Shown here piece after piece: positions 8,957-28,444 of a stretch of 64,000 nt of DNA. The DNA lies in contig CBDCWP010000021.1 of the NCBI GenBank assembly GCA_965223505.1, forward strand, positions 160,001-224,000, read 5' to 3'. Under the pieces are notes generated by a model. It saw only the letters and a program-made list of their open reading frames with translations, was not told the origin of the DNA and ran no database searches. This DNA is from Planctomycetota bacterium (GTDB lineage: Bacteria; Planctomycetota; PLA2; JAEUHO01). Positions within the stretch are counted from its first letter, which is position 1. Every line of letters begins with the position of its first letter. Made by a program: the position numbers and the translations under genes.

Positions 8957-10861
8957 GTGAAACAGGACCAATTCCTACAGGTCGCCTCGGTGGACGACGC
9001 GCGTACGCGTTGGTACGCGGCGCTCGCGCTCGATCCGCGCCCGGCGGAGCTCGTGCCGCTGGACCGGTCGCTGGGCCGCACCCTCGCCGAAGACATCGTC
9101 GCGCCCGGCGACGTTCCGGCGTTCGACCGCTCGAACGTCGACGGGTTCGCGGTGCGCGCCGCCGACACATTCGGTGCCGACGAGCGAACGCCCCGTCTGC
9201 TGCGGATCGCAGAGGAGTCGATCGATGCCGGTCACGCGCCGACGAAGGAGCTCGAAGCGGGGCACGCGGTCGTCATCGCGACCGGCGGCGTCGTACCGCG
9301 CGGCGCGGACGCCGTCGTCATGGTCGAAGACACGGAGACCGACGGCGACCTGGTGAAGGTCACGCGACCTGTATCGCCGGGAGGACGCATCAGTAACGCC
9401 GGCAGTGACATCACGCGCGGCGAGACGTTGCTGCGCGCGGGCCTGCGACTCTCCGCGCGCGAGACGGGAACGCTCGCGGCGTGCGGCGTCGACCCTGTCG
9501 CCTGTCGCGCACGGGTGCGCGTCGCCGTGCTCTCGACAGGCGATGAGATCGTCGCGCCCGGCACGACTTTGGCGCCGGGGCAGGTGCACGACGCGAACGC
9601 GACGCTGCTCGCCGACGCGATTCGCGAGCTCGGTGACGAAGCGCACGTGCTCGGCATCGCGCCTGACGACGCGGAGCCGTTGCGCCGGATGCTGCGCGAA
9701 GCGTGGGCGGACAGCGACGTGATCCTGCTCTCCGGCGGAACGAGCAAGGGCGGCGGCGACCTCTCGTACCGCGTGCTGGCCGAGGAGGCGGAGATCATCG
9801 TGCACGGCGTCGCGCTGAAGCCGGGCAAGCCGCTGTGCCTGGCGGCGTGGGACCGGAAACCGGTCGTGATCCTGCCGGGGTTCCCGACGTCCGCCATCTT
9901 CACCTTCCACGCGTTCGTCGTGCCCGTGCTCGGCAAGCTCGCGGGACGCGCCGGTTTGCCGGCGTCGACGATCCGCGCCAAGCTCTCCCGTCACATCCGC
10001 TCCGATCGGGGCCGCGCCGAATTCACGTTGGTCAGCCTCGTCGGCGGCGACGACGGCTGGGTCGCGTTCCCGATGGGCAAGGGCTCGGGCTCCGTCACCA
10101 CCTTCGCGCGCGCGGACGGCTTCTTCCAGGTCCCCGCGAACGTGGAGTACGTCGAAGCCGACGACGTGGTCGACGTCACGCTGCTCGGTCGCGACCTGCG
10201 CCCCGCGGCGCTGGTGATCGTGGGTAGCCACTGCACGGGCCTCGACGTGATCGTCGGCGACCTTTCGAAGACGCTGGGCGACGTCAAGGTGATCACCGTC
10301 GGCTCGCGCGGCGGCGTCGACGCGCTGCGCCATGGCGCCTGCGACATCGCGCCGGTGCATCTGTTCGACAAGGAACGCGGCACGTGGAACGAGTCGTTCG
10401 CGCCGCCGGGCACCCGGTTGCTGCGCGGCTACGGGCGAACCCAGGGCCTGGCATTTCGAGCGGAGCACGGCGACCACTTCTCCGGCGACGTCGAAGCCGC
10501 GTTCCTCCGCGCCGCGCGCGACGAGACGCTTCGGTTGGCGAACCGCAATCCTGCGAGCGGCACGCGCATCCTCGTCGAGGAGTTGCTGGGCGACGCGCCA
10601 AAGCCCGCGGGCTGGGCGACGTCGTACACGTCGCACACCGCCGTTGCCGCGTCGATCGCCCAGCGTCGCGCGGACTACGGCATCTGCCTCGCATCGGCCG
10701 CACGCAAGGCCGGACTCGAGTGGAGGCCCTGGCGTGCGGAGCAGTACGACTTCCTGGTGCCGGACGATCGCTGGACGTCTCCGGGCGTCACGGCGTTTCG
10801 CAAGACACTCGCGACGCCGAAGGTGCGCGCCGCCCTCGAGGACGCGGGGTTCGAGCTTTGA
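8957..10861 (+). CDS. moeA: molybdopterin metallotransferase MoeA fused to a periplasmic-binding-protein-like C-terminal domain
   Basis: PAFDRSNVDGFAV, STGDEI, SGGTSKG, KPGKP, GFPTS; C-terminal GSHC/NRNPASGTR PBP-like segment; alternative ATG at 8948. Confidence 0.9.
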   Translation: MKQDQFLQVASVDDARTRWYAALALDPRPAELVPLDRSLGRTLAEDIVAPGDVPAFDRSNVDGFAVRAADTFGADERTPRLLRIAEESIDAGHAPTKELEAGHAVVIATGGVVPRGADAVVMVEDTETDGDLVKVTRPVSPGGRISNAGSDITRGETLLRAGLRLSARETGTLAACGVDPVACRARVRVAVLSTGDEIVAPGTTLAPGQVHDANATLLADAIRELGDEAHVLGIAPDDAEPLRRMLREAWADSDVILLSGGTSKGGGDLSYRVLAEEAEIIVHGVALKPGKPLCLAAWDRKPVVILPGFPTSAIFTFHAFVVPVLGKLAGRAGLPASTIRAKLSRHIRSDRGRAEFTLVSLVGGDDGWVAFPMGKGSGSVTTFARADGFFQVPANVEYVEADDVVDVTLLGRDLRPAALVIVGSHCTGLDVIVGDLSKTLGDVKVITVGSRGGVDALRHGACDIAPVHLFDKERGTWNESFAPPGTRLLRGYGRTQGLAFRAEHGDHFSGDVEAAFLRAARDETLRLANRNPASGTRILVEELLGDAPKPAGWATSYTSHTAVAASIAQRRADYGICLASAARKAGLEWRPWRAEQYDFLVPDDRWTSPGVTAFRKTLATPKVRAALEDAGFEL

Positions 10862-11460
10862 TCCGCGGCGCGCTCGTTCTGTGCGGTGGTCACAGCACCC
10901 GCATGGGCGCGCCCAAGGCGCTGCTGCCGTTCGGCGAGGAGCTCATGTTGCAGCGCGTGGTGCGTCTCGTCTCGGAGGCCGTGACGGACGTCGTCGTGGT
11001 CGCGCGCCCCGGTCAGGAGATGCCGCCGCTTCCGAAACACGTGCGGGTCACCTACGACGAGATCCCCGATCAGGGTCCGCTCGGCGGCATCGCGCCGGGC
11101 CTGAAAGTCTCCCGCGCGGACGCGGTGTACGTAACCGGGTGCGACGTTCCGTTCTTGAGAACGGCCGTCGTCGACCTGCTCTTCGACCGGCTCGCGTCGA
11201 ACGACGTCGCCGTGTGCGAGACCGATGGGTTCACGCACCCGCTGGCGGCGGTCTATCGCGTCGGCGTGCTGCCCGTGGTCGAGAAGCTGCTGGCAACCGA
11301 GCGCCGGCGGCCGGTGTACCTCTTCGACCGGGTGCGGACGGTGCGCGTGAACGCGGCCGCGCTTCGGAAGGTCGATCCGAACCTCGACACGCTCGCGAAC
11401 CTGAACACACCGGAGGCCTACGAGGCGGCGCTGCAGTCGCTGTTGGGCGAGACGCCGTGA
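10858..11460 (+). CDS. mobA: molybdenum cofactor guanylyltransferase
   Basis: LCGGHSTRMGAPKALL, GPLGGI, CDVPF, NLNTPE; TTG overlaps the moeA stop. Confidence 0.9.
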   Translation: MIRGALVLCGGHSTRMGAPKALLPFGEELMLQRVVRLVSEAVTDVVVVARPGQEMPPLPKHVRVTYDEIPDQGPLGGIAPGLKVSRADAVYVTGCDVPFLRTAVVDLLFDRLASNDVAVCETDGFTHPLAAVYRVGVLPVVEKLLATERRRPVYLFDRVRTVRVNAAALRKVDPNLDTLANLNTPEAYEAALQSLLGETP

Positions 11461-11717
11461 TCCGGGTCGAGCTCTACGAGGTGGCGCGGCGGCTGGCAGG
11501 CGTCGCGAGCCTCGAGGTCGAAGCGTCGACCCTGGGCGAGGCGCTCCAGGCGGTCCGTTTGCGATACCCGGTGCTGGAGCCGGACGTGATCGTCGGCCGG
11601 CGCCTGGCGCCGCAGTGGCGCGCCAGCCGCAACGGCCGCGAGTGGATCGAGGATCCGGACACCCCGCTCGAGGTCGGTGACGCGCTCGTGCTCGTGAGCG
11701 CCTTGGCGGGCGGGTAG
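11457..11717 (+). CDS. moaD: MoaD/ThiS sulfur carrier
   Basis: 86 aa ubiquitin-like protein ending ALAGG; GTGA overlap with mobA. Confidence 0.85.
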   Translation: MIRVELYEVARRLAGVASLEVEASTLGEALQAVRLRYPVLEPDVIVGRRLAPQWRASRNGREWIEDPDTPLEVGDALVLVSALAGG

Positions 11718-11771
11718 CGGGAAGTCGAACGCGCTCCCGGCGTCCAAGTCGATGGTCACTGGGAGAGTCGC

Positions 11772-12653
11772 ATGCCGTCCAAGAGCGTCCTTGGTTGTGT
11801 TCTGTGTTGCGGGGCCGTCGCAGGGTTCCTCGCTTCGGCCTTCGTGCCGTGGGCGCCGGCCCACGCGGATGACGAGGAAACGGCGCGGCTGTACGTCAAC
11901 TGCCCCGAGGCCTCGGTGCAGCCGATCGTCGACTTCGTCGCGGAGCGGGGCGGCATAGTGCACGACATGGATTCGTTCAAGCGCCTGTTCGCGTCGCGGA
12001 GAGTCCCGCTGTTGCCGCCGCTGCAGTCGGGTGTCGACGTCATCACCGCGATCTACGAGTCTCTTGCCGCGGCCCGGCAAGAGGGCGAGGTGCTCGACGT
12101 CACGAGCTTGCACGTCCGCGAGCGACGGTTCCGCCTCACGGTGCGCATGTCGAGCTACGAGACGGCCGATGCGCTGCGCACGGCGCTCAACACCAACCCC
12201 TACCTGAGACACCGCATGGGGGAGGGCAACCGCGTCGAGCTCGGCAGCTCGTCGCGCACCAAGGACGGGCACGTCAAGCAGGACATCGCCGCGAAGCTGC
12301 CCGAGTCGGTCGGGGACGTCAGGGTTCCCGAGATCGTGCCGGACGTGAGCATTCGCGTCGCGGACGTCGACCGGATCGCCCTGAAGACCGACCTGCGTCT
12401 GATGCAGGCGGGCCCGGAGCGGCGCGATGCGAATCGAAGCCTCGGCGTGATGACGATCTCGCGTGAGTTCGTCTACGAGGCGACCGAGCTGGTGCGCCTG
12501 CGCGCGTTTCTCAAGCTGCTCGCCGAGCACCCGGACTTCACGGTGATCGACGTCCGCTTCACGATCGACGAGAAGGAATCGACGGCCGAGCGCCTGCTGG
12601 TCGGGAAGTCGACGGTGCGCGTCGCGCGCTACGGAGCCAATCCGCCGAAGTAG
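11772..12653 (+). CDS. exported hypothetical protein, paralog of the next gene
   Basis: signal peptide (AHA-D); shares CxxxxVQxIVDFVxxxGGxVHD with 12684..13559. Confidence 0.65.
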   Translation: MPSKSVLGCVLCCGAVAGFLASAFVPWAPAHADDEETARLYVNCPEASVQPIVDFVAERGGIVHDMDSFKRLFASRRVPLLPPLQSGVDVITAIYESLAAARQEGEVLDVTSLHVRERRFRLTVRMSSYETADALRTALNTNPYLRHRMGEGNRVELGSSSRTKDGHVKQDIAAKLPESVGDVRVPEIVPDVSIRVADVDRIALKTDLRLMQAGPERRDANRSLGVMTISREFVYEATELVRLRAFLKLLAEHPDFTVIDVRFTIDEKESTAERLLVGKSTVRVARYGANPPK

Positions 12654-12683
12654 GCGCGAGCTGCGACGTCCGCGGAGGGACGC

Positions 12684-13559
12684 ATGGGAAGGCATACGGT
12701 GCTCGCGCTCACGGCGGCAACGGCGCTCGCTCTCGTGGTGCTCGCCCCGAGCTGGTTGGACCGCTCCGCGGATGCGGACGGACAGCCGTCGACCGAGCTG
12801 GTCGTTCGGTGTGCACCCGACCGAGTGCAGTCGATCGTCGACTTCGTGACCCGGCAAGGCGGCACGGTGCACGACCGCGCGACCCTGGAGCCGCTGCGCG
12901 CGAGGGCACGCGGAGCCGCGCCCGGACTGCCGGCGATCAGGTCGATCATCCCGGTCTGGGACGGCCTGCACGAGACGCTCTCCGTCGTCAACGCAAGCGC
13001 CGGTCGGCATCCGGTCTCGCTCTCCCACGTGGACATCCAGGACCGTCGCATGCAGCTCACGGTCGAGACGCAAGACCGGAGTCTGATCGACGCGCTTCAA
13101 CGGGCCCTGCTGAAGCACCCGGTCGTCGCGGCGCGCGTCGCCGGCGCCAACCGTCCCGTCGAGCGCGCTACCGCGAGGAAGGACCGGAGCGGATCGTGGC
13201 GCGCCGACCTCACGGTTCATTTCGGGCGACCTGCCGAAGCGAAGCCGCCGACAGAGGACGCCGAGAGGACGATTCGCCTCGATGATCTGAAGACGGCATC
13301 CAAGCGTGCCGGGGTCGAGCTGATCTACGCGTCGAACGAGCACCTCGAGGCACATCGGCGCACCGGCCTCGCCACGATCTGGCGCGCGGTCACATACGCA
13401 CGCGTGGAGTCCGACGGTCTGCAATCGCTCTTGCGCGAACTCGAGTCGATCCGCGGCGTGAGCGTCGCCGTGCTTCGCGTTTCGGTCGATCCGGAGGGCG
13501 CCGCCGCGTTCGAGAAGGTCAACGTCCGCGTGGCCAGACGCATCCACTGGCGGGACTGA
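12684..13559 (+). CDS. exported or membrane-anchored hypothetical protein, paralog of the previous gene
   Basis: GGAGG RBS; N-terminal hydrophobic helix; shared motifs. Confidence 0.65.
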   Translation: MGRHTVLALTAATALALVVLAPSWLDRSADADGQPSTELVVRCAPDRVQSIVDFVTRQGGTVHDRATLEPLRARARGAAPGLPAIRSIIPVWDGLHETLSVVNASAGRHPVSLSHVDIQDRRMQLTVETQDRSLIDALQRALLKHPVVAARVAGANRPVERATARKDRSGSWRADLTVHFGRPAEAKPPTEDAERTIRLDDLKTASKRAGVELIYASNEHLEAHRRTGLATIWRAVTYARVESDGLQSLLRELESIRGVSVAVLRVSVDPEGAAAFEKVNVRVARRIHWRD

Positions 13560-13678
13560 GTTCCTGACGAACACGTGTCGATTGAAATCGCAGCGTTCGA
13601 CGTTGCGCGCCCGCGGCTATGCTGGTCCGGGGCAAGCGGCTACGTGAGGTGGTTGGAGCGCTCGACGTCTCGACCCGC

Positions 13679-15793
13679 ATGGTGCACGCGCAACGGAACC
13701 ACCGACGACCGAACCGGGGTCTGCTCGCCCTGGGACTCGCCGCTGCGCTTCTCACGGCGCTGCTCGGCTGCGGCGACGGCGAGCTCGATTTCGTCTTGCC
13801 CTCGGACGCCGTCTTCTCGGTCACCAACCCGGCGGGGATGCCCGTCGCCGGCGCGACCGTCTTCCTGGTGCCGGCATCGGATATCGACACCGGTGACGTC
13901 ACCGGAAACGACGTTCTCTCCGGCGCCGCCGAGACCCGCGACGAACCGCTCGAAGACGCCGTTCGCCTGCGCGGCGCCTCGTACCCGCGGGGCGTCACCG
14001 ACGCCGGCGGTCGCGTCCTCATCGCCGACGTTCCGTTCGGCACCTACTTCTGGTTCGTCCTGCCCGCGGCCGGCGACACCGAGCACCTTCCCGGTGGCGA
14101 AGGCTGCCGGCTCGCCCGGCAGAGCACGACGTTCCTGGGCACGACCACGTCGATCCGCCTCACGTCGCAGCCCTCCGCTGCGGCGGCCTTCGTCGGATCC
14201 ACGACCTGTCTGGCTTGTCACAGCGCGCACGGCGGCTTTCGTCAGCACGCACATCGACTCGCCTTCACGGTGCCGGGGCAGCTCTCGGCGCTGCAGGACG
14301 CGACGCGCTACCCGAACATCCAGGGCGGCTGGGCGACGTTCCTTCCCGCCGCCGTTCACACCGGCGGCACGCCCGTCTACTTCTCGGACTTCGACGGCGG
14401 GCGCGAAACCGACAAGTTCAAGACGTCGCTCAGCGATCCGCGCCCGGCCGAGACGCTCTTCGTGATCGCGTGGCTCTGGCGGGACACCGCGGACAACCGC
14501 TTCAAGATCACGCTCGAGAACGTCATCAACGCGATCGATCCACCGCGAACGCTCGTCGTCGAGCTGACCTACGGCGGGCCGTTGCACATGCAGCGCAGTC
14601 TCGTGAGCGTCCCGGGGCGCAACGGACGCTACCCACTGCTCCAGTGGCAGTCGGAAGGCGACGAGACGAAGTTCGACCGAACGCGCAAGGTGTTCCGCGA
14701 CTACCGACTCGACTCGTTCTGGAGCGCGGGCACGCAGACGTTCACCGACCCGCCGGTCGATACCGCCTTCGAGGGCAACTGCACCGGCTGTCACTCGAAC
14801 GGGTTCGAGCGCTTTCGGGACCCGGGCACCAACGAGTGGCTGTCGCGCGCCGTGTCCGACGTCGGCGGCGCTTTCGACATCGACGGCGACGGACCCGCCG
14901 ACGAGATCAACCTCGGCTGCGAGACCTGCCACGGCGCCGGCTCGGAGCACGTGGCCTGGGCGCAGGCCAACCCCGTCTCGTCGGCCGCGCGGTTCATCGT
15001 GTCGAACGCGTACTTGAGCCCGTCACGCGACATGCAGGTGTGCGGCCGCTGCCACGACCGCGTCGTCGGCAACGGCCCGCATCCCACGGGCGAGCCGCTC
15101 GATCCGCAGGGGCGGCGCGCCCGGCCCGGCATCAGCCGCATGCAGTTCCTCGCAAACCACGTCACGCGCAAGGGGCCCGATGCGGCCGACTATTGGAACG
15201 ACGACCTGCACAGCCGCAACCACTACCAGCAGTACGCCGACATGTTGAAGTCGAAGAAACACAGGAACGACCGCATCCTCACCACGTGCACGGACTGCCA
15301 CGAGAGCCACGGCAACGGCCCCTTCGTGCGGCATCTGCGCGCGGATCCCTCCGACGCGAACAGCGCGCTGTGCCAGCAGTGCCACCTGACCGACCACTTC
15401 CAACACATGTTCGACGAGACCGGCACGACCCACGCGGGCGACGCGACGACCTGCGTGCGCTGCCACCAGACATGGGCATCGCGCGCGGGCGCCGGACGGT
15501 ACGGGATCATCATCACCGGCGCCACCGGCACGGCGCTCGACCTTCAACGGACGTACTTCCAGAACGACCGACGCAGCCACCTCTTCCTCGGCGTACCGGG
15601 AAGACTGCATCCCGATGTCGCGGGCGTGCTTCCGGCGTTCGCCATGCCGATCCCGTTCACGAACGAGTGCGGGGCGGGCTGCCACAGCGTCGTCAATCTG
15701 CAGAACCTCAAACCGACAAACGGCGTCGAGATCGACGTCTCGCGCCGCCCGTTGCCGGACCTGGGACGGGGTGCATCGGGAGACGACCGATGA
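13679..15793 (+). CDS. multiheme c-type cytochrome lipoprotein (7 CxxCH + 1 CxxxCH) with N-terminal beta-sandwich
   Basis: lipobox LLGC; CLACH, CTGCH, CETCH, CGRCH, CTDCH, CQQCH, CVRCH, CGAGCH. Confidence 0.9.
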   Translation: MVHAQRNHRRPNRGLLALGLAAALLTALLGCGDGELDFVLPSDAVFSVTNPAGMPVAGATVFLVPASDIDTGDVTGNDVLSGAAETRDEPLEDAVRLRGASYPRGVTDAGGRVLIADVPFGTYFWFVLPAAGDTEHLPGGEGCRLARQSTTFLGTTTSIRLTSQPSAAAAFVGSTTCLACHSAHGGFRQHAHRLAFTVPGQLSALQDATRYPNIQGGWATFLPAAVHTGGTPVYFSDFDGGRETDKFKTSLSDPRPAETLFVIAWLWRDTADNRFKITLENVINAIDPPRTLVVELTYGGPLHMQRSLVSVPGRNGRYPLLQWQSEGDETKFDRTRKVFRDYRLDSFWSAGTQTFTDPPVDTAFEGNCTGCHSNGFERFRDPGTNEWLSRAVSDVGGAFDIDGDGPADEINLGCETCHGAGSEHVAWAQANPVSSAARFIVSNAYLSPSRDMQVCGRCHDRVVGNGPHPTGEPLDPQGRRARPGISRMQFLANHVTRKGPDAADYWNDDLHSRNHYQQYADMLKSKKHRNDRILTTCTDCHESHGNGPFVRHLRADPSDANSALCQQCHLTDHFQHMFDETGTTHAGDATTCVRCHQTWASRAGAGRYGIIITGATGTALDLQRTYFQNDRRSHLFLGVPGRLHPDVAGVLPAFAMPIPFTNECGAGCHSVVNLQNLKPTNGVEIDVSRRPLPDLGRGASGDDR

Positions 15794-16410
15794 TCCGCGT
15801 TTGTCTGCTCCTTTGCGCGACGTCGGCCGTGGTGGCCAACCTCTTGCCCGCGTCGCGCCATGCTCCCGCCGCGGCCGACGAAGAGAAACCGTGCTTCATC
15901 GGCGCCGCGAAATGCAAGCACTGCCACTTCCGGCATCACAAGACGTGGAAGCAAAGCGGCCTCGCCCAGGCGTTCGAGGCGCTGAAGCCGGGCGCGGCCG
16001 CCGAGAAGAAGAGGTCGAGCGGGCTGGACGTGAAGAAGGACTACACGAAGGACCCGAAGTGCCTGAAGTGCCACACGACCGGCTACGGCACCCCCACCGG
16101 CTATCCCGTGCCGGTGGCCGATGGGTGGACGGCCGAAGAGCAAGAGCGCGCGAAGATCAATGAAGGCGTGACGTGCGAGGTCTGCCACGGCCCGGGCAGC
16201 CTCTACGCGCCCTACAAGCGCAAACACAAGGACTACAAGCGCTCCGCCATCGTCGAGCGCGGCGCGATCGCGCCGGTGTCGTCCAAGACGTGCGACCAGT
16301 GCCACGTGCGCGAGTGTCCGACGATGGGGTCCGACTACCGTTTCGACTTCGCCGCCAAGCGCCGCTCGAAGCGCATTCACTCACGCGTGCGGCTCAAACA
16401 CCCGCACTGA
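15790..16410 (+). CDS. tetraheme cytochrome c554-like periplasmic protein
   Basis: signal peptide; FIGAAKCKHCH, CLKCHTTG, CEVCHGPGS, CDQCH; ATGA overlap. Confidence 0.9.
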   Translation: MIRVCLLLCATSAVVANLLPASRHAPAAADEEKPCFIGAAKCKHCHFRHHKTWKQSGLAQAFEALKPGAAAEKKRSSGLDVKKDYTKDPKCLKCHTTGYGTPTGYPVPVADGWTAEEQERAKINEGVTCEVCHGPGSLYAPYKRKHKDYKRSAIVERGAIAPVSSKTCDQCHVRECPTMGSDYRFDFAAKRRSKRIHSRVRLKHPH

Positions 16411-16426
16411 GGAGAGAACCCACCCG

Positions 16427-17950: not shown

Positions 17951-19008
17951 TGAACACGCCCGCACGAAAATGCGTGATCGGACTCCTGCTGTTCACCGTC
18001 TATCTGGTGGGCTGCCGCCTGTTCGCCCCGCCGGAGTGGCGCCCGGGCAGCGCACGCGCGCCGGTCGAGTTCGTCGGTGGACCGCGCATGGACCACGCCG
18101 CGCACGTCGAGCGCGGTCTCGCGTGCGCCGACTGCCACGCGCCCGATCCCAGGACGGGCGAACCCGGATCGCCTTCCCGCGACGACTGCGCGCAGTGTCA
18201 CGACGAGATCGACGAAGCCTGGCCGGCGCAGAAACGCGTCGCCACCGCGTTCTTCCGACCCGACGGAACGCCCCGATGGCGGCGCGCCGTCGCGGACTAC
18301 GACCCCGAGGTCATCTTCGATCATCGCGGACACGGCGCAATGAGCTGCCTCTCATGCCACGGCGCGGTGACGCGCCAATCGCGACGGGTGGCGGGCGAGT
18401 TGCACACGATGGACCAATGCATGCACTGCCACGAACGCCAGACGGCCGCGAACGAGTGCGCGACGTGCCATCGCGTCCTGCGCGACGACAAGGCGCCCGC
18501 GAACCACCGGTACCTGTGGAAGGAGCGCCACGGGCAGATCGTTCGTAATCACGGATCGATGGAGGCCGGCCGCTGCGACATCTGCCATCGCGACGCGTCG
18601 TATTGCGACGACTGCCACCAGGACGAGCCGCCGCGCGACCACACGGCGCTATTCCGGATCCGCACCCACGGCGTTCACGCGGCCATGGACCGTCAGAAGT
18701 GCGCGACGTGTCACATGACCGACTTCTGCCAGCGCTGCCACGAGAACACGCCGCCGCGCTCGCACCGCGGCGTCTTCGCAACGGGACGCAACACGCACTG
18801 CGTGCAGTGCCACTTTCCGGTGACCCAGACCCGCTCGTGCCGCGTGTGCCACTTCGAGAATCCGACGCACGACACGGCGCCGGATCAGCCGCCGTCGCAC
18901 TTCCCGGGGATGAGCTGCCGCAACTGTCACAACGCCATCGGCCAGGGCGGCGCGCGTCCGCTGCGTCACCTCGACAACGGGCAAGTTTGCGAGTCTTGCC
19001 ACCGCTAG
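17950..19008 (+). CDS. 13-heme c-type cytochrome lipoprotein (c3/c7-like repeats)
   Basis: lipobox LVGC; 13 CxxCH in 352 aa; MDHAAH and FDHRGH distal-His motifs; TGATG overlap with the porin gene. Confidence 0.9.
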   Translation: MNTPARKCVIGLLLFTVYLVGCRLFAPPEWRPGSARAPVEFVGGPRMDHAAHVERGLACADCHAPDPRTGEPGSPSRDDCAQCHDEIDEAWPAQKRVATAFFRPDGTPRWRRAVADYDPEVIFDHRGHGAMSCLSCHGAVTRQSRRVAGELHTMDQCMHCHERQTAANECATCHRVLRDDKAPANHRYLWKERHGQIVRNHGSMEAGRCDICHRDASYCDDCHQDEPPRDHTALFRIRTHGVHAAMDRQKCATCHMTDFCQRCHENTPPRSHRGVFATGRNTHCVQCHFPVTQTRSCRVCHFENPTHDTAPDQPPSHFPGMSCRNCHNAIGQGGARPLRHLDNGQVCESCHR

Positions 19009-19018
19009 CGGACTTGGC

Positions 19019-19396: not shown

Positions 19397-19431
19397 GCGC
19401 ACATCTTGCCGGAGCGGCCGGATCACGCGCC

Positions 19432-19446
19432 TAGAATGCGTACATG
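19432..19446 (+). promoter_or_regulatory. -10 box positioned for a leaderless aor transcript
   Basis: TAGAAT-N6-ATG with no SD. Confidence 0.5.
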
Positions 19447-21255: not shown

Positions 21256-21272
21256 CGGAGGTCGAGCCCGAC

Positions 21273-24107
21273 ATGAACTCGCCGTTGACCGCGGACACGG
21301 AAGCCACCGAAGCGCCGGCCAAGACCGTCACGCTGGAGATCGACGGACAAGAGGTCACCGTCCCCGAAGGCACCACCGTCTGGCAGGCCGCCAAGGACAT
21401 GGGCATCGACATTCCGGTGCTTTGCCACGATCCCAAGCTCGATCCCGTCGGCGTGTGCCGCATGTGCGTCGTCGAGGTCGAAGGTGCGCGCACCCTGGTC
21501 GCGTCGTGCGTGCGCGACTGCGAAGACGGCTTGAAGGTCAAGACGGGCTCCGAGACCGTCGTGCGCAACCGCAAGGTGCTCACCGATCTGTTGATGGCGG
21601 ATCAGGACGCGACCAGCCGCCGCGACGAGAAGACCAACGACGACGAGCTGTTCAGCCTCGCCCGCGAGTTCCAGGTCGACGGCTCGCGTTGGCCCCGCGG
21701 CAACGGCCGTCCCGACGACGACTCGTCGCCCGTCATCTCGGTGGATCACCAGGCCTGCATCCTTTGCGACCGCTGCATTCGCGCCTGTGACGACATCCAA
21801 TTCAACATGGTCATCGGCCGCACCGGCAAGGGCTATGCGACGCGCATCGGCTTCGACCTGAACAACCCGATGGGCGACTCGACCTGCGTGGAGTGCGGCG
21901 AGTGCGCATCGGCGTGTCCGACCGGGGCGCTCACCAACAAGCCGATCACCGTGCCGATTCGGCCGCCCGAGACGCTCGAGAAGGTCGACTCCGTCTGCCC
22001 CTATTGCGGCGTCGGCTGCGCGCTGACGTTCATGGTCGACAGAGAAGAGAACAAGGTCGTCTACGCCGAGGGCCGTGACCCGAGCGCCAACGAGGGGCGG
22101 CTGTGCGTCAAGGGCCGTTACGGCTTCGACTACGCGACGCACAAGCACCGGCTGACCAAGCCCCTGATCCGCAAGGAGAGCTCGTACCCGAAGGGGCCGC
22201 TCAGCGCGAACATGCAGCGCCGGGACGACGGCACGCGCGGCGAGAGCGTGTATCCCGACTACGACGAGGCGCTGAACCACTTCCGGGAAGCGACGTGGGA
22301 CGAGGCCCTCGATCTCGTGGCAAGCAAGCTCAAGTCGATTCGCGACGAACACGGCCCGCAGGCGCTCGCCGGCTTCGGCAGCGCGAAGTGCTCGAATGAA
22401 GAGGCGTATCTCTTCCAGAAGATGATCCGCGCGGTGTTCGGCACGAACAACGTGGACCACTGCACGCGGCTTTGCCACGCGTCCAGCGTGGCCGCGCTGC
22501 TCGAGACGATCGGCTCGGGCGCGGTCACGACCGTGTACGGCGACATCGAGAACTCCGACGTCGCGCTCGTGACGGGCACGAACACGACCAGCAACCACCC
22601 CGTCGCAGCGACCTTCTTCAAGGAGGCCGCGAAGAACGGCACGAAGCTCATCATCGTGAACCCGCACCGGCCCGAGCTGGCCGATCACGGCGAGTACGTT
22701 CGCATCCGGCCTGGCAGCGACGTCTCCTTCTACAACGCCATCATGAACGTCATCCTCGAGGAGGGCCTCGAGGACCGCGCGTACATCGAGAAGTTCACGG
22801 AGAACTTCGATGCGCTCAAGGAGGTCGTTGCGCGCTACACGCCCGAGGTCGCGGCGCCCATCTGCGGCATCTCGGCCGACGAGATCCGCGACCTGGCGCG
22901 CACCATCGGCAACGCGAAGGCGATGATCATCTTCTGGGGCATGGGCATCTCGCAGCACGTGCACGGCACCGACAACGCGCGCAGCCTCATCTCGCTGTGC
23001 CTGATGACGGGCAACGTCGGCCGCCCGGGTACGGGCCTGCATCCGCTGCGCGGCCAGAACAACGTCCAGGGCGCCAGCGACGCGGGCTTGATCCCGATGG
23101 TCTACCCCGACTACGTGCCGGTCAACGACCCCGACGCGCAGAAGCGCTACGAGGAAGCCTGGGGCGTCTCGCTCGATCCGAATCCCGGCAAGACGGTGGT
23201 CGAGATCGCGCACGCCGCGGTCGAGGGTGAGCTCAAGGGCATGTACATCATGGGCGAGAACCCGTTCATGTCCGACCCGAACGTGAAGCACGCCCGCGAG
23301 GGGTTCATGAACCTCGACTTCCTCGTCGTCCAGGACATCTTCCTGACCGAGACCGCCGAGGTCGCCGACGTCGTGCTGCCCGCGACGAGCTACTTCGAGA
23401 AGACGGGCACCTACACGAACACGGACCGGCGCGTGCAGATCGGCGCGACGACGCTCGAGCCGCCCGGTGAAGCCCGGCTGGACTGGGAGATCCTGTGCGA
23501 GGTCATGACGCGCATGGGCTACGAGCAGTCGTACGACGACATCGAGGACGTCTTCGTCGAGTTCAGCGAGATGACGGAGAGCTACAAAGGCCTGCGCTAC
23601 CGCCACCTGGGCGGCCCGGGCAAGCTCTGGCCGTGCGCCGATCCCGACAACTCCGACGGCGAGGTCGTGCTGTTCGGTGACGGCTTCCCGACGCCGTCGG
23701 GCCGCGGCAAGTTCTCGCCCGCCGAGGTCATCCCGCCGGCCGAGCTTCCCGACGAGGAGTACCCGTTCGTCCTGAACACGGGGCGGACGCTGCAGCACTG
23801 GCACGGCGGCTCGATGACGCGTCGCGCAAAGGTGCTCGACCAAATCAACCCCGAGGCGTTCTGCGAAATCCACCCCGACGACATGGCGTCGCTCGGGCTC
23901 GAGGACGGCGGCATGGTGCGCTTGAGCACGCGCCGCAACTCCATTCGCGTGAAGGCCGTCGCGAGCACGAAGACCTCGAAGGGCAGCGTGTTCATGCCGT
24001 TCCACTACCGCGAGGCGGCGGCGAACCTGCTGACGACCGACACGCTCGACCCGATCGGCAAGATCCCATCCTTCAAGTTCGCAGCGCTCAAGGTCGAGAA
24101 GGCGTGA
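21273..24107 (+). CDS. fdhF: formate dehydrogenase alpha subunit (cytoplasmic, Cys-ligated bis-MGD)
   Basis: [2Fe-2S] and 2x[4Fe-4S] N-domain, CPYCGVGC, DHCTRLCH, LRGQNNVQG, MPFHY; no Tat signal. Confidence 0.93.
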   Translation: MNSPLTADTEATEAPAKTVTLEIDGQEVTVPEGTTVWQAAKDMGIDIPVLCHDPKLDPVGVCRMCVVEVEGARTLVASCVRDCEDGLKVKTGSETVVRNRKVLTDLLMADQDATSRRDEKTNDDELFSLAREFQVDGSRWPRGNGRPDDDSSPVISVDHQACILCDRCIRACDDIQFNMVIGRTGKGYATRIGFDLNNPMGDSTCVECGECASACPTGALTNKPITVPIRPPETLEKVDSVCPYCGVGCALTFMVDREENKVVYAEGRDPSANEGRLCVKGRYGFDYATHKHRLTKPLIRKESSYPKGPLSANMQRRDDGTRGESVYPDYDEALNHFREATWDEALDLVASKLKSIRDEHGPQALAGFGSAKCSNEEAYLFQKMIRAVFGTNNVDHCTRLCHASSVAALLETIGSGAVTTVYGDIENSDVALVTGTNTTSNHPVAATFFKEAAKNGTKLIIVNPHRPELADHGEYVRIRPGSDVSFYNAIMNVILEEGLEDRAYIEKFTENFDALKEVVARYTPEVAAPICGISADEIRDLARTIGNAKAMIIFWGMGISQHVHGTDNARSLISLCLMTGNVGRPGTGLHPLRGQNNVQGASDAGLIPMVYPDYVPVNDPDAQKRYEEAWGVSLDPNPGKTVVEIAHAAVEGELKGMYIMGENPFMSDPNVKHAREGFMNLDFLVVQDIFLTETAEVADVVLPATSYFEKTGTYTNTDRRVQIGATTLEPPGEARLDWEILCEVMTRMGYEQSYDDIEDVFVEFSEMTESYKGLRYRHLGGPGKLWPCADPDNSDGEVVLFGDGFPTPSGRGKFSPAEVIPPAELPDEEYPFVLNTGRTLQHWHGGSMTRRAKVLDQINPEAFCEIHPDDMASLGLEDGGMVRLSTRRNSIRVKAVASTKTSKGSVFMPFHYREAAANLLTTDTLDPIGKIPSFKFAALKVEKA

Positions 24108-24916
24108 GCCGTAGCCTCGCGCTGCTCCTGGCGCTCGCGGTCTCTCTGGGCGCTTGCGGGGACGGCGCGAAGCGCGTCCGCCTCGTCACGACGACGTCGA
24201 CGCACAACTCGGGTCTCCTCGAGCACTTGCTCGCCGAATTCACACCGCAGACCGGCATCGAGGTCGATGTCCTGGCCGTGGGAACGGGCAAGGCGCTCGC
24301 GCAAGGGCGGCGCGGCGACGCGGACCTGCTGCTCGTACACGCGCGCGAGCTCGAAGACGCGTTCCTCGCCGAGGGCCATGCGATCGAGCGGCGCGATGTG
24401 ATGTGGAACGACTTCGTAATCGTCGGGCCGCCGTCCGACCCGGCGGGCATTCGCGGCATGAAGGAACCGGCGGCGGCGCTCGCGAAGATCGCGAAGACGG
24501 GGGCGCGCTTCGCGAGCCGTGGGGACCGGTCGGGCACCCACATGCGAGAGCTCGCGCTCTGGAAGGCGTCCGGTGTCGATCGCACGTCCAACGGCGGTTA
24601 CGTGGAGGCGCGGCTCGGCATGGGCGGCTCGTTGATCTACGCGGACGAGAAGCGCGCGTACCTGCTCGCCGACCGCGGCACGTACCTCTCGCACATGAAG
24701 CGCCTCGATCTCGAGCTCGACATTCTCGTAGAGGGCCACGCCTCACTTCGCAATCCCTACGGCGCGCTGTTGATCGACCCAGTGCGACACCCGGTCGGCA
24801 ATGCGGAGGGCGCCCGCAAGCTGTTCGACTGGTTGACCTCGCCGGCCGGTCAGGCGCGAATCGCTTCGTTCCAGGTTGACGGCAATCCGCTCTTCCATCC
24901 CAATGCCGCCAAGTAG
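24104..24916 (+). CDS. tupA: tungstate ABC transporter binding lipoprotein
   Basis: lipobox LGAC; TTTSTHNSGLL, GTGKAL, SRGDRSGTH, DRGT. Confidence 0.9.
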   Translation: MSRSLALLLALAVSLGACGDGAKRVRLVTTTSTHNSGLLEHLLAEFTPQTGIEVDVLAVGTGKALAQGRRGDADLLLVHARELEDAFLAEGHAIERRDVMWNDFVIVGPPSDPAGIRGMKEPAAALAKIAKTGARFASRGDRSGTHMRELALWKASGVDRTSNGGYVEARLGMGGSLIYADEKRAYLLADRGTYLSHMKRLDLELDILVEGHASLRNPYGALLIDPVRHPVGNAEGARKLFDWLTSPAGQARIASFQVDGNPLFHPNAAK

Positions 24917-24942
24917 CTCGTGATCAAAATAGGAGATCGACC

Positions 24943-25638
24943 GTGGAGTTCCTCTGGGAGGGATTCAAGACCGCCGTCCATCTCATCCTGAGCGGCGACG
25001 CGGAAACGTGGCACGCCGCGTGGGTGACGATCTTCTGCTCGTTCATCGCGGTCGCGCTGGCTGCTCCGCTCGCGGTCACGTACGGCGGCTGGCTGGCCGT
25101 CTATCGCCCGCGCGGGCACCGCCTGCAGGTGTTGCTGCTGCGCATCGGCATGTTCGTGCCCACGATCTTCATCGGGACGATGGTCTGGGGCTTCCTCTCG
25201 CGGCGGGGCCCGCTGGGCGAGCTCGACATGCTCTACACGAAGGGCGCGATCATCGCCGGCGAGTTCCTGCTCGTCTTCCCCATCCTGGGCGCACTGACGC
25301 ACAGCGCCCTCGAAGCGCCCGACCGGCGACCGTTCGAGACGGCGCGTACGCTGGGCGCCGGACCGGTGCGCACCTTGTTGACGCTGTTGGGTGAAGTACG
25401 CGGTGTCATCGTGGGCGCGATGCTCATGGCCTGTGCCCGCTGCTTCTCCGAGCTGGGCATCTCCGTCACGGTCGGCGGGAACCTGCAGTGGCAAACCAGC
25501 ACCTTGAGCGGCGGTGCCCAGCTCATGGTGCGCCAGGGGGAGTTCGGCGAAGCGCTCGCGTTGGGGTTCATCCTTCTGTTCTTCGCCGGCATCGTCGCCG
25601 TGCTCGCGCCGTTGGTTTCGAAGGAGAGCAAGGCGTGA
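24943..25638 (+). CDS. tupB: tungstate ABC transporter permease
   Basis: LSRRGPLGELDMLYT, FSELG...VGGNL; AGGAG RBS. Confidence 0.88.
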   Translation: MEFLWEGFKTAVHLILSGDAETWHAAWVTIFCSFIAVALAAPLAVTYGGWLAVYRPRGHRLQVLLLRIGMFVPTIFIGTMVWGFLSRRGPLGELDMLYTKGAIIAGEFLLVFPILGALTHSALEAPDRRPFETARTLGAGPVRTLLTLLGEVRGVIVGAMLMACARCFSELGISVTVGGNLQWQTSTLSGGAQLMVRQGEFGEALALGFILLFFAGIVAVLAPLVSKESKA

Positions 25639-26219
25639 TGCGCATGCGGAACATCCGCGTCGTGTTCGGCGACGTCGTCGGCCTGTGGTTGGACGAGCTC
25701 GACATCGAATCCGGCGAACGACTCGGCGTCACGGGCCCGAACGGCTGCGGCAAGTCGACGCTGATGCGGGTGCTCGCGGGTCTGCAGGCGGTCACGTCGG
25801 GAACGGTGCAGGGGCTGCCGGCGCCCGGCCGCATCACGCTCGTGCATCAGCGCCCCTACTTCTTCCGCGGCACCGCGCGAGACAACGTCGTCTACGCGTT
25901 GAAGACGGCAGGGAAGCCAACGTCGGAGGCGGACGCGTGGCTGGAACGGCTCGGCGCCGCCGAGCTCGCCGATCGAACGGCGGGCGTGCTCTCGGGCGGC
26001 GAGCGCCGCCGCGTCGCGGTCGCGCGCGCGCTGGCGATCCGGCCGGAGATCCTGCTGCTCGACGAGCCGTTCGCCGCGCTCGACGACGAGGGCCTCGCGA
26101 CGATGAACGCCGCGATCGGAGCGTTCGAAGGCACGCTGGTGGTCACGGCGCCGGACCTGAAAGACGCGCCGGTCGCGCGGACGGTCGAGCTTCGTCCCGC
26201 CGAACGTCGAAACGGATAG
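25635..26219 (+). CDS. tupC: tungstate ABC transporter ATPase
   Basis: GPNGCGKST, LSGGE, LLLDEP; operon position. Confidence 0.85.
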   Translation: MMRMRNIRVVFGDVVGLWLDELDIESGERLGVTGPNGCGKSTLMRVLAGLQAVTSGTVQGLPAPGRITLVHQRPYFFRGTARDNVVYALKTAGKPTSEADAWLERLGAAELADRTAGVLSGGERRRVAVARALAIRPEILLLDEPFAALDDEGLATMNAAIGAFEGTLVVTAPDLKDAPVARTVELRPAERRNG

Positions 26220-26225
26220 ACTGGG

Positions 26226-27482
26226 ATGGTGAGGTGCGCGCGACCCGTCCTGCTTCTGTTCGCGACGTCGCTGCTTTGTGTCGCGCCCGCGGCCGCGGAC
26301 AGCAAGAAGAAGCCGCAGGGCGCCGACCGCGAGGCCGAGCGGTATCCGCCGAGCTTTCGGTTGGCCGTCGAGGAGGCGATCCAGTACGGCGTCGCGGTCA
26401 TCAAGAAGGCACAGAAGAAGGACACGGGGACGTGGGGCAGCCCCGACGCACCCGAAGCCATGGGCCGCACGGCGCTCCCGTTGCTCGCGCTGCTGAAGGC
26501 CGGCGTCCCCGTCGACGACCCGCACGTGGTGCGCGCGCTCGAGGCGCTCTCGAAGATGAAGTTCGAGCGCACGTACAGCACGGCCTGCTACCTGATGGCG
26601 ATCCAGGCGATCTACCAGCCCAAGCTCGACATGTGGGACACGGACGTGGGCGCCTTGCGTTCGAAGCGCCTGAAGCCCAAGGAGGTCTACGCCAGGCTCA
26701 CCCCCGAGCACCGTGAGGCCGTCGAGAAGGGCGTCGCGCACCTCACCGCTGCGCAAAACTCCATCGGGCTCTGGACCTACGTCGACGAGCGGGTCAAGAC
26801 GCCGGTCAAGTACGACCTGTCGAACACGCAGTACGGCCTCCTGGGGCTCCGTGCGGCGGCCGACTGCGGGGTCAAGGTCAAGCCGCTGGTCTGGAAGGCC
26901 GCGTTGCGCGGACTGTTCCTGAATCAGGACGCGAAGGGCGAGAAGGTCACGCTCACGAACGACGTCGAGAAGGACGGGTACGTCTTCCGCACGAAGGACG
27001 TCGCGGAGACCCGGCCCTTCCGCTACACGCACGCGAAGAAGCACGGGCCGGCCGGCGAGAACACGGTGCCGACGATGCCCGCGACGGGATCGATGACGAC
27101 CGCCGGGGTCTGCTCGGTCGCGATCTGCATGGAAGGGATGTGGCGCAGCCGCAAGTTCAGCGGCACGGAGCGCAAGAAGGCCAACGACGCGATCCGCGAC
27201 GGACTGGCGTGGCTGCAGCAGAACTTCACGGTCGAGAAGAACCCCGGCCACCCGAACATGCGGCATCACTTCTACTACCTGTACGGACTGGAGCGCATGG
27301 GCATGCTCACGGACCGGCGCTGGATCGGGTCGCACGACTGGTACAAGGAAGGCGCCGACCTGCTGCTGGCGCGCCAGCGGGAGCCCTTCGGCGGCTGGGC
27401 CGGCGGCGCCGTGCAGAACGCGTTCGCGGTGCTGTTCCTGAAGCGCGCGACGGCCCGGTCGATCGCCGTCAGTGGCGATTAG
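26226..27482 (+). CDS. exported prenyltransferase/squalene-cyclase-repeat protein
   Basis: signal peptide; YDLSNTQYGLLGL, SMTTAG, YYLYGLER, DWYKEGA. Confidence 0.75.
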   Translation: MVRCARPVLLLFATSLLCVAPAAADSKKKPQGADREAERYPPSFRLAVEEAIQYGVAVIKKAQKKDTGTWGSPDAPEAMGRTALPLLALLKAGVPVDDPHVVRALEALSKMKFERTYSTACYLMAIQAIYQPKLDMWDTDVGALRSKRLKPKEVYARLTPEHREAVEKGVAHLTAAQNSIGLWTYVDERVKTPVKYDLSNTQYGLLGLRAAADCGVKVKPLVWKAALRGLFLNQDAKGEKVTLTNDVEKDGYVFRTKDVAETRPFRYTHAKKHGPAGENTVPTMPATGSMTTAGVCSVAICMEGMWRSRKFSGTERKKANDAIRDGLAWLQQNFTVEKNPGHPNMRHHFYYLYGLERMGMLTDRRWIGSHDWYKEGADLLLARQREPFGGWAGGAVQNAFAVLFLKRATARSIAVSGD

Positions 27483-28444
27483 AGCGTTTCGCGCACGATC
27501 TCCGCGACGGCGTCGACGGCGGGGCGGCCCGCGTTGATGCAATCGATGCGGGTGTAGCCCTTGCCGCCGGCTGCTTCGAACGTCTCGCGCAGCTCGCGTC
27601 CGATCTCGTCGATCGTCTCCAGACAGTCGGCGACGAACGACGGCGTGATCACGCTCATCGAGGTCACCCCCTCGCCCGGCAGCTTTGCAACCGACGCGTC
27701 GGCGTAGGGCGTCAGCCACTCCTCGCGGCCGAAGCGACTTTGATAGACCACGCGCCACACGTCGTCATCGAGGTCGAGCGCGCTCGCAAGGGCGTCGGCG
27801 GTGCGCCGGCATTCGTCCGGGTAGGGATCGCCCTCCGCCGCGTAGCGCTTCGGAATGCCGTGAAAGGACATCAACAGGGGGGCGTCCTTCGTCGCCACGA
27901 CGCCCGCGTCGACGACCGTCTTCCGGAGCGCCTCGATGTAGGCGGGATGGTCGGGGAAGGATCGAACGAAGCGGAGGGAGGGCAGGTCCTTCCGGGTCGT
28001 CGCCCACTTCGCGACGGCGTCGAACGCGGACGCGGTCGTGGCGCTCGAGAACTGCGGGAACAACGGCAGCACGACGACGTCGCGGCAGCCCGCGCGCACG
28101 AGCTCGTCCAGCGCACCACCGAGCGGCGGGTTGCCGACGATCATCCCGTACCGGACGAGGTAGTCGTCGCCAAGCGCCGCGGCGACACCGTCCGCCAGCT
28201 GCTTGGTGTGCACCAGCAGCGGCGAGCCCTGTTCGGTCCACACGCGCTTGTAGAGCGCGGCCGACTTCCGCGGCCGCGTGCGAAGGATGACGCCGTGCAG
28301 CAACGGCTTCCACAGCCAAGGGTTTACGTCGACGACGCGCGGATCGCTCAGGAACTTCCGCAGGTACCTGCGCAACGCAGGGGTGGTCGGCGCGTCGGGC
28401 GTGCCGAGCTGGATGAGCAGAACGCCGGTAGGTGCGGTCGCCAT
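27479..28444 (-). CDS. hemH: ferrochelatase
   Basis: QLGTPD, FLSDPRVVD, LPLFPQFS, SFHGIP, YQSRFG, DCLETIDEI. Confidence 0.95.
   Translation of the reverse strand: MATAPTGVLLIQLGTPDAPTTPALRRYLRKFLSDPRVVDVNPWLWKPLLHGVILRTRPRKSAALYKRVWTEQGSPLLVHTKQLADGVAAALGDDYLVRYGMIVGNPPLGGALDELVRAGCRDVVVLPLFPQFSSATTASAFDAVAKWATTRKDLPSLRFVRSFPDHPAYIEALRKTVVDAGVVATKDAPLLMSFHGIPKRYAAEGDPYPDECRRTADALASALDLDDDVWRVVYQSRFGREEWLTPYADASVAKLPGEGVTSMSVITPSFVADCLETIDEIGRELRETFEAAGGKGYTRIDCINAGRPAVDAVAEIVRETL

Follow-up and report, generated by a model that had tools for sequence, protein, structure and literature searches.

Gene organization of the region

The window analysed here is a 64,000-nucleotide (nt) stretch of contig CBDCWP010000021.1 (assembly GCA_965223505.1, Planctomycetota bacterium), and the region under study (positions 8957-28444) carries a cassette of multiheme cytochrome and porin genes (13619-19008) inside an island of genes for tungsten enzymes, their cofactor, and tungstate uptake. 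The genome that carries the window (G000, in which the window's contig is C21) is a draft of 44 contigs with a completeness of 92%. The initial annotation of this region proposed a single locus for aldehyde/formate-linked extracellular electron transfer (EET). Comparison with related genomes leads us to favour, with a probability of roughly 0.78, two independently inherited modules that were brought together by a rearrangement specific to the lineage of G000.

Real genes were selected using third-position G+C content (the overall G+C content of the window is ~68%) and family scans against Pfam and NCBIfam. The order on the plus strand is moeA-PBP, mobA, the MoaD-like gene, unkA, unkB, cyt8, cyt4, porin, and cyt13, followed by the genes for an aldehyde:ferredoxin oxidoreductase family enzyme (AOR) and a formate dehydrogenase (FDH), tupABC, and unk418. 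The minus-strand genes of the region are a DUF1294 gene, located between cyt13 and the AOR gene, and the convergent hemH. All genes named in the initial annotation (moeA-PBP, mobA, moaD, the cytochromes and porin, aor, fdh, tupABC, DUF1294, and hemH) were recovered at the positions and on the strands given there, and their identification as an AOR-family enzyme, an FdhA-type FDH, a Tup-like transporter with a TTTS motif, cofactor genes, and a porin-multiheme module was right. Its count of 25 heme motifs is matched by 24 canonical CXXCH motifs and one atypical CX3CH motif in the cassette. Two secreted paralogs (UnkA and UnkB) and a secreted protein of 418 amino acids (aa; Unk418) were absent from its gene list. 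The features are as follows.

8957-10861, plus strand: moeA fused to a PBP-like domain (Pfam MoeA_N, MoCF_biosynth, MoeA_C, and PBP_like)
10870-11460, plus strand: mobA-like molybdenum cofactor guanylyltransferase (NTP_transf_3, 122 bits)
11457-11717, plus strand: MoaD/ThiS-like small sulfur carrier, 86 aa, C-terminus ...SALAGG (Gly-Gly)
11772-12653, plus strand: unkA, secreted protein without a family (no Pfam or NCBIfam match)
12684-13559, plus strand: unkB, secreted paralog of unkA, also without a family (~290 aa each)
13619-15793, plus strand: cyt8, 724-aa lipoprotein multiheme cytochrome (7 CXXCH and 1 CX3CH, lipobox LLGC)
15790-16410, plus strand: cyt4, periplasmic c554-type tetraheme cytochrome (4 CXXCH, signal peptide without a lipobox)
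16427-17950, plus strand: porin-like outer-membrane beta-barrel, 507 aa (no heme motif, C-terminal Phe, barrel predicted by AlphaFold2)
17950-19008, plus strand: cyt13, 13-heme lipoprotein cytochrome (13 CXXCH in ~350 aa)
19019 to about 19396, minus strand: DUF1294 membrane protein (PF06961, 72 bits; start predicted from the sequence)
19444-21255, plus strand: AOR of the tungstopterin type (AFOR_C and AFOR_N)
21273-24107, plus strand: FDH alpha subunit, FdhA-type, with N-terminal 2Fe-2S and 4Fe-4S domains (TIGR01591)
24104-24916, plus strand: tupA (TTTS at residue 29, lipobox)
24943-25638, plus strand: tupB (top specific NCBIfam match TupB)
25638-26219, plus strand: tupC, component of a Tup-like tungstate ABC transporter
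26226-27482, plus strand: unk418, secreted 418-aa protein without a family (no Pfam or NCBIfam match)
27479-28444, minus strand: hemH, ferrochelatase, convergent (PF00762, 331.6 bits; TIGR00109, 268.2 bits)

The draft state of the genome, with its 44 contigs, and a GC skew that is negative (-0.083 to -0.029) over window positions 14001-20000 and positive in the flanks on both sides raise the question of an assembly or binning artefact that joined two places or two organisms. This explanation is very improbable. Window positions 10000-20895 recur with zero differences in a Logan contig of 18,128 nt that was assembled separately, from sequencing run X1, so the junctions are not an artefact of this assembly, although X1 may be the window's own source sample and runs X1-X3 all come from one study, which makes the support not fully independent. 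Sampled words of the region are also present in run X2 (91%) and run X3 (64%), and the G+C content is even (67-70%) across the region.

Distribution of the two modules in related genomes

The tungsten island was compared with the AOR loci (L030-L035) of six relatives belonging to the same family. For each relative, the genes upstream of the AOR gene, the size of the gap between moaD and the AOR gene, and the genes downstream are given below.

G020: moeA-mobA-moaD upstream; gap of 3.3 kb; FDH-tupABC downstream
G008: moeA-mobA-moaD upstream; gap of 6.6 kb; FDH downstream
G015: moeA-mobA-moaD upstream; gap of 7.7 kb; FDH-unk418 downstream
G009: moeA-mobA-moaD upstream; gap of 5.9 kb; FDH downstream
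G001: mobA-moaD upstream (the stretch ends in mobA); gap of 9.0 kb; FDH-tupABC downstream
G014: nothing within 12 kb upstream; no gap; FDH downstream

Every candidate open reading frame (ORF) listed for the moaD-AOR gaps of the five relatives is devoid of CXXCH motifs; the scanned ORFs include those for a PAS-histidine kinase-receiver protein, CrcB, DUF190, an OprO/P porin, ferritin, and a Ser/Thr kinase. The moeA-PBP orthologs (54-64% identity) head the same island in G020, G008, G015, and G009, mobA is syntenic in five relatives, and in five relatives the MoaD-like orthologs (45-64% identity) come after mobA. The FDH gene directly follows the AOR gene at all six loci, and a fitting space of 2.8 kb between the AOR gene and tupA in G003 implies the same order there; tupA comes after the FDH gene in G001 and G020 and lies 2.8 kb past the AOR gene in G003. 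Because the relatives keep this gene order without cytochromes, a tungsten/molybdenum island whose moaD-aor interval has variable contents appears to be ancestral in the family, and the cytochrome cassette fills this interval only in G000. According to the initial annotation, a chance insertion would be revealed by uncorrelated expression and by relatives in which moaD adjoins aor and the cassette lies elsewhere. The genomic part of this picture is essentially borne out: the relatives' cassettes lie elsewhere, beside cytochrome c maturation genes, and their tungsten/molybdenum genes are free of cytochromes, although moaD and aor are separated by the variable gap of 3.3-9 kb rather than abutting.

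The PAS-histidine kinase-receiver hybrid sensor is encoded directly upstream of the AOR gene in G020 (L031:9515-12637) and G009 (L035:8616-10772), and a related receiver-containing ORF is present in the gap of G008 (L032:8151-9374); G000 has the cassette and the DUF1294 gene there instead.

The porin family is widespread in the phylum. In an even sample of the phylum, the profile matched at least 83 of 401 genomes and at least 63 of 287 genera, the 83/401 count being a floor that comes from a stricter first look. A word-index protein search returned only 11 porin clusters and thus understated a family shown to be common by the profile search. A pattern scan of one genome per species identified 17 porin loci, all in Planctomycetota metagenome-assembled genomes (MAGs) and two of them cut by contig ends. 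The porin gene adjoins a cyt13 homolog at all 17 of these loci, in G020 and G008, and at six of six distant loci, i.e. at 25 of 25 other loci, and the partner cytochrome at these loci has 12-17 hemes. Homologs of cyt4 and cyt8 are present at 12 and 6 of the 17 loci, respectively, with cyt8 homologs of 53-56% identity at the same position in L007, L008, and L009, and most of the 17 loci encode further large multiheme cytochromes (9-15 CXXCH). In a neighbour search covering up to 10 kb on each side of the porin loci (some contigs are much shorter), the AOR, tupABC, moeA, mobA, moaD, hemH, unkA/unkB, and DUF1294 genes had no matches at the 25 other loci, and the FDH gene had none at any of the 17 pattern-scan loci.

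Three of the six distant loci belong to genomes with strong matches to the hydrazine-synthase alpha subunit (89-102 bits), and we therefore regard these genomes as anammox-type. In them the pair stands alone, the partner having 13-14 CXXCH in stop-to-stop frames of 346-360 aa. By tblastn, the window pair shares 27-28% identity with their porins (E 1e-31 to 1e-35) and 31-33% with their cytochromes (E 1e-41 to 1e-42). In one of the three (L040), a partial FDH-like gene (L040:1-1329) with 42% identity to the FDH of the window is encoded on the opposite strand, its end 6.6 kb away from the pair; nothing similar was found near the pair in the other two hydrazine-synthase-bearing genomes.

Among 24 genomes of the same family, the porin was detected in 12 and AOR (orthologs of 64-78% identity) in 14: both are present in 7 genomes, the porin only in 5, AOR only in 7, and neither in 5. 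This 7/5/7/5 split indicates that the two are present independently of each other. In all 7 genomes with both, the porin and AOR genes are located on different contigs, which are 0.1-0.9 Mb long in G008, G009, G015, and G020. Each module thus recurs in other genomes more than would be expected by chance, and their juxtaposition was seen only in G000. Because the relatives keep them apart, the tungsten and cytochrome modules probably do not form a single system.

These distributions run counter to the integrated EET locus of the initial annotation, in which aldehyde/formate oxidation by tungsten enzymes would feed the conduit via ferredoxin and the quinone pool, with metal uptake and cofactor and heme synthesis encoded alongside. 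Every part of such a unit does lie within 19.5 kb, the cassette follows moeA-mobA-moaD-unkAB closely and in the same orientation, and an FDH-like gene is found near the pair at the anammox-type locus L040. Furthermore, formate-dependent reduction of metal oxides and electrodes has been reported in anammox planctomycetes that have the same pair (bioRxiv 10.1101/855817, PMC7188810). Nevertheless, G000 alone among the genomes examined has this arrangement (AOR, tup, and moe genes at 0 of 25 other porin loci), the tungsten islands of five relatives are free of cytochromes, and the presence of one module does not follow that of the other. With the DUF1294 gene lying between them on the minus strand, the cassette and AOR-FDH-tup cannot share one transcript. 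The window encodes neither a quinol dehydrogenase nor a ferredoxin:quinone link, and both AOR and FDH are predicted to be cytoplasmic, because their matches start so close to the N-terminus (within ~10 residues) that a signal peptide would not fit. We consider a single functional unit unlikely.

In close relatives, the cassette lies in another setting. In the six with enough upstream flank (L002/G006, L003, L007/G003, L010, G020, and G008), its neighbours are ResB- and CcsA-like genes, located at the end opposite cyt13. ResB and CcsA (ccsB/ccsA) represent System II of cytochrome c maturation. In four of the six, an ORF with 11 CXXCH lies between these genes and the cassette (L002:6326-8629, L003:6619-8841, L010:6138-8576, and L007:4372-6627). 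The ORF of L002, the only one scanned, has a cytochrome b561-type membrane domain in its C-terminal half (PF01292, 33.6 bits; cut-off 30.1), and a fusion of this type would connect the conduit to quinol at the inner membrane. As the initial annotation noted, the window itself encodes no such link. We take this multiheme-c::cytochrome b fusion to have the architecture of Geobacter CbcL. The same locus encodes, downstream of the porin pair, a protein of ~1000 aa with 9 CXXCH (L002:12686-15754) that strongly matches MtrC/MtrF domain II/IV (PF22113, 139 bits); the L002 locus thereby mixes a Geobacter-style core with Shewanella-style surface cytochromes.

In G000, the best matches of the ResB/CcsA-like genes lie on contig C7 at 107-112 kb, where the only ResB/CcsA pair of the genome is flanked by genes for a glutamate dehydrogenase and a lipid A acyltransferase and has no cytochrome gene in its vicinity. 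The CbcL-like fusion that accompanies the cassette of the relatives (L002, with the 11-CXXCH ORF in three more) and the MtrC-like protein of L002 had no tblastn match at E 1e-3 in the 92%-complete G000. Because ResB/CcsA are encoded elsewhere and these two proteins are unmatched, the G000 cassette would be a trimmed copy separated from its usual neighbours, and it appears to have moved rather than to have been assembled in place.

Porin, cytochromes, and the proposed electron path

The porin belongs to no Pfam or NCBIfam family. Its AlphaFold2 model, based on an 11-row alignment (mean predicted local distance difference test score (pLDDT) 72.3, predicted template-modelling score 0.66), has a signal helix ahead of an acidic, disordered stretch (residues 18-89); the 24 strand elements that follow (residues 98-506) predict a beta-barrel of ~22-24 strands. 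A Foldseek search of the model against the PDB returned only outer-membrane barrels (FimD, AlgE, Occ, and MOMP) as generic matches with TM scores of 0.30-0.43, and a search of PDB sequences with the porin profile identified no solved barrel, yielding five chance-level matches at E up to 10. A complex of the porin with Cyt13 was predicted with a score of 0.48 (best of three controls, 0.00), at least 45% of the contacts agreeing between runs and the partner pLDDT being at least 65. The mark used was attained by 116 of 157 solved complexes and 2 of 215 mismatched pairs, but at scores of 0.60 or below by only 18 of the 157 solved complexes along with both passing mismatches, so that the prediction only weakly suggests a porin-Cyt13 contact.

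The start codon of cyt13 overlaps the porin stop codon by one base. The N-terminus of Cyt13 reads LVGC, i.e. a lipobox, and in an alignment of 21 sequences (Cyt13 and 20 relatives), most of the rows that reach the N-terminus have a lipobox-like Cys ahead of the heme domain. Twelve CXXCH motifs and many histidines are invariant in this alignment, which suggests that Cyt13 is a conserved heme wire. Its N-terminal half resembles the pentaheme subunit of alternative complex III (ACIII; 6lod, E 7e-8). Cyt4 matches PF13435 at 66.5 bits (cut-off 20.8), and its start codon overlaps the stop codon of cyt8. Cyt8 is a putative cell-surface partner of the conduit, a location suggested by its lipoprotein features; against PDB sequences it gave a single cytochrome match (6qvm, E 0.051).

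The porin, with its 24 strand elements, and Cyt13 form the combination that defines porin-cytochrome complex (Pcc, PCC) clusters, namely a gene for a porin-like barrel adjoining one for a multiheme c-type cytochrome. A two-gene pcc cluster of this kind, with a cytochrome of 14 hemes in proteins of 338-344 aa, was described in Candidatus Kuenenia stuttgartiensis from a BLAST search with Geobacter Pcc proteins, in which matches to OmbB/OmaB were accepted at E < 0.01 (Shi, Fredrickson and Zachara 2014, PMC4245776); the same paper reports a two-gene cluster in Anaeromyxobacter, and the Kuenenia cluster is cited as kuste4024/4025 in a study of anammox EET (bioRxiv 10.1101/855817). Genes for PCCs have also been reported in non-anammox Planctomycetota MAGs (PMC10732223). 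The view of the initial annotation that the arrangement was undescribed in planctomycetes thus does not hold for the conduit. One of the 17 porin loci, L014, comes from a MAG named in the latter paper.

Like the Kuenenia cluster, the window has a porin beside a multiheme partner, with 13 CXXCH in ~350 aa; unlike it, the window adds a c554-like tetraheme cytochrome and a 7-8-heme lipoprotein cytochrome. The Kuenenia cytochrome is called periplasmic in PMC4245776, whereas the 13-heme partner in the window carries a lipobox. The link to Kuenenia was drawn from architecture and hydrazine synthase, the three matched genomes not being established as Kuenenia. The cassette can accordingly be assigned, by homology and gene order, to the Pcc type, known from Kuenenia since 2014, the connection to Geobacter being indirect, through the pairs of the hydrazine-synthase-bearing genomes.

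The barrel, the inner multiheme cytochrome, and the putative outer lipoprotein multiheme cytochrome follow the logic of OmbB-OmaB-OmcB of Geobacter sulfurreducens, but the heme counts there are 8 and 12, compared with 13 and 7-8 in the window (PMC4245776). According to the survey by Shi et al. (2014, PMC4245776), most Pcc clusters include an outer-membrane lipoprotein multiheme cytochrome, which is absent from the two-gene forms. Shewanella MtrCAB is similar in principle, with a heme wire through a large barrel and a surface cytochrome. Membership in MtrCAB was rejected: Cyt13 and Cyt8 scored 29.7 and 43 bits, respectively, on TIGR03508 (DmsE/MtrA-family; cut-off 192.2), and the porin has neither a family nor a solved homolog. 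A surface decaheme of the MtrC/OmcA type was likewise rejected, as PF22113 scored 22.9 bits for Cyt8 and 22.8 bits for Cyt4 (cut-off 30). PCC3 and PCC4 (He et al. 2017) were excluded, no five-helix inner-membrane protein with two WX3HX13H motifs being encoded from moeA to hemH, where the DUF1294 protein is the only non-transport membrane protein and has no such motif. The periplasmic cytochromes of PCC4 have 4, 5, and 10 hemes (He et al. 2017), and the heme counts in the window are 4, 13, and 7-8.

With two separate modules, the following scheme can be proposed. In the tungsten module, MoeA-PBP, MobA, and the MoaD-like carrier would make and load the cofactor, TupABC would import tungstate, and the AOR-family enzyme and the FdhA-type FDH would use the cofactor in the cytoplasm. 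The ancestral cassette would have stood beside ccsB/ccsA and an 11-heme::cytochrome b quinol dehydrogenase, and in G000 it would have been separated from them and would now fill the moaD-aor gap. Quinol would be oxidised by complexes encoded elsewhere in G000, either a Rieske/cytochrome b/octaheme module or ACIII. The genome search proposed in the initial annotation gave a mixed outcome in this respect: no protein of G000 matches the CymA/NapC family above the cut-off, but NrfD/cytochrome b complexes are encoded on C24 (the Rieske/cytochrome b/octaheme module), C10 (ACIII), and C38 (a second NrfD-plus-pentaheme locus), in addition to the ResB/CcsA pair on C7. Electrons would then enter the soluble periplasmic tetraheme Cyt4 and cross the barrel along Cyt13, a 13-heme wire with a lipid anchor, before reaching Cyt8 at the surface; this lipoprotein would deliver them to Fe(III), Mn(IV), humics, or another extracellular acceptor.

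On sequence grounds, electrons could equally possibly flow through the cassette in the reverse direction. The cassette might then take electrons from a cathode or from Fe(II) and other reduced minerals outside the cell and carry them inward, as MtoAB/PioAB do. Mtr-type porin-cytochrome modules are reported to work both ways (PMC4245776, PMC5566968), the CbcL-like quinol dehydrogenase and the MtrC-like decahemes of the relatives' cassettes were not detected in G000, and its ACIII and Rieske/cytochrome b complex could take electrons from periplasmic cytochromes. Nothing in the sequence sets the direction, however, and the surface-type lipoprotein Cyt8 and the MtrC-like and CbcL-like genes of the relatives resemble reducing systems. 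Electron uptake as the role of this cassette appears to us a less probable alternative.

Several observations weigh against the view that two independent modules were joined by a rearrangement. The cassette shares its strand with moeA-mobA-moaD-unkA-unkB; the spacers leading up to cyt8 measure only 31-60 bp, and inside the cassette the genes overlap or are at most 17 bp apart. Co-transcription of the cassette with moeA-mobA-moaD-unkAB could thus occur and is the only route left for an integrated reading. No mobile-element genes, transposase, or flanking repeats were found around the cassette, the repeats present being those of the heme motifs and the unkA/unkB paralogy. G000 is the sole member of its genus in the genome set, and the direction of the rearrangement is deduced from outgroups only. 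The failure to detect CbcL-like and MtrC-like proteins in G000 has to be read against its completeness of only 92%. Finally, the conduit function is proposed from homology and architecture, and the Foldseek matches are to generic barrels and the complex prediction is weak.

A related possibility is that, in this one lineage, a trimmed cassette was captured into a tungsten-cofactor operon and the moeA promoter now drives its transcription along with that of mobA, moaD, and unkA/unkB, which would place the conduit and the supply of the tungsten enzymes in one regulon. A scan of positions 8600-28500 found one promoter-like and seven terminator-like sites, numbers that do not exceed those in shuffled sequences (means 0.7 and 9.1). 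We regard such a regulon as improbable and continue to favour the joining of two independent modules.

Tungsten-enzyme genes and implications

The AOR has the scores of a WOR-family protein, AFOR_N reaching 198 bits (cut-off 29.8) and AFOR_C 379.2 bits (cut-off 27), and its assignment is one of domain scores. The FDH scores 769.2 bits on TIGR01591, above the equivalog cut-off of 666.25, and its closest solved relative is the alpha subunit of a tungsten-containing FDH (7vw6/7e5z, 1018.7 bits over residues 11-941). The window FDH and 7vw6 agree in every residue of TRLCHASS and PLRGQNNVQG, two stretches that presumably hold the catalytic residues (active-site Cys/Sec-His and Arg). No NuoF-like subunit is encoded beside the FDH, the two of G000 being located on contigs C39 and C12, and FdhD was not found in the 92%-complete genome. 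The conserved AOR-FDH pair may work together or share an electron carrier. We found no description of this pairing, but no dedicated literature search for it was made.

TupA and TupB gave their top specific matches to the TupA (181.5 bits; cut-off 400) and TupB (135 bits; cut-off 320) models, both under the cut-offs. The TTTS sequence of TupA is, we assume, an anion-binding motif that is selective for tungstate.

MoeA-PBP scores 692.8 bits on NF011068 (cut-off 534). MoeA inserts the metal into molybdopterin. The top NCBIfam matches of MobA are MobA models, every one of them under its cut-off, and the MoaD-like protein scores 31.8 bits on TIGR01687, under the cut-off of 49.5. Gene neighbourhoods in which WOR/AOR genes occur with tupABC, moeA, and pterin genes have already been described (PMC13328260), and a MoeA1/MobA maturation pathway has been reported for the tungsten-dependent FDH MeFDH1 (PMC13197769). 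As in these neighbourhoods, the window combines an AOR-family enzyme and an FdhA with tupABC, moeA, mobA, and a MoaD-like gene, and its FDH is nearest to a tungsten FDH alpha subunit; unlike them, it has no NuoF-like beta subunit beside the FDH.

The unkA and unkB genes are tandem paralogs (28% identity, E 8e-22) joined by a 51-nt direct repeat with 80% identity. The sole clear UnkA homolog among 40 relatives is in G001, likewise in the moaD-AOR gap, and none lies beside any other porin locus examined. In the ESM Atlas, UnkA matched unnamed clusters and gave PilO/PilN leads below 0.9 only. A weaker stretch related to unkA/unkB is present on the window's contig beyond the window (G000:C21:283342-284201).

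The DUF1294 gene, which is convergent with cyt13 and divergent from the AOR gene, was not found in any tungsten island or cassette locus of the relatives examined, and hemH was not found near the tungsten island at the six relatives' loci, where the downstream flanks are short. A homolog of unk418 (53% identity) directly follows the FDH gene in G015 (L034:17091-17999); in G000, unk418 follows tupC. Outside the region, several very large secreted proteins composed of CarboxypepD_reg (carboxypeptidase-regulatory-like) repeats are encoded at window positions 28786-32741 (minus strand) and 49294-52929 (plus strand), one of which has 1211 aa and six scored repeats.

An integrated system for aldehyde/formate-driven electron export, if true, would have been a new metabolic design, and a regulon formed by capture of the cassette would, if true, mean that a coupling of low-potential aldehyde/formate oxidation to the disposal of electrons outside the cell had newly evolved. 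The comparative evidence points instead to a chance neighbourhood, the position of the cassette in the tungsten island being a lineage-specific rearrangement, and the proposed export system should stay out of models of planctomycete metabolism. The conserved AOR-FDH pairing, which in G000 has no adjoining NuoF-like partner, is a small question of its own. The pair formed by the porin and a 12-17-heme cytochrome, for which there is no Pfam or NCBIfam model, is frequent in Planctomycetota, far beyond the anammox bacteria of the first report. Close relatives of G000 encode a fuller pathway and thereby offer concrete targets for the study of metal and electrode respiration in non-anammox planctomycetes.

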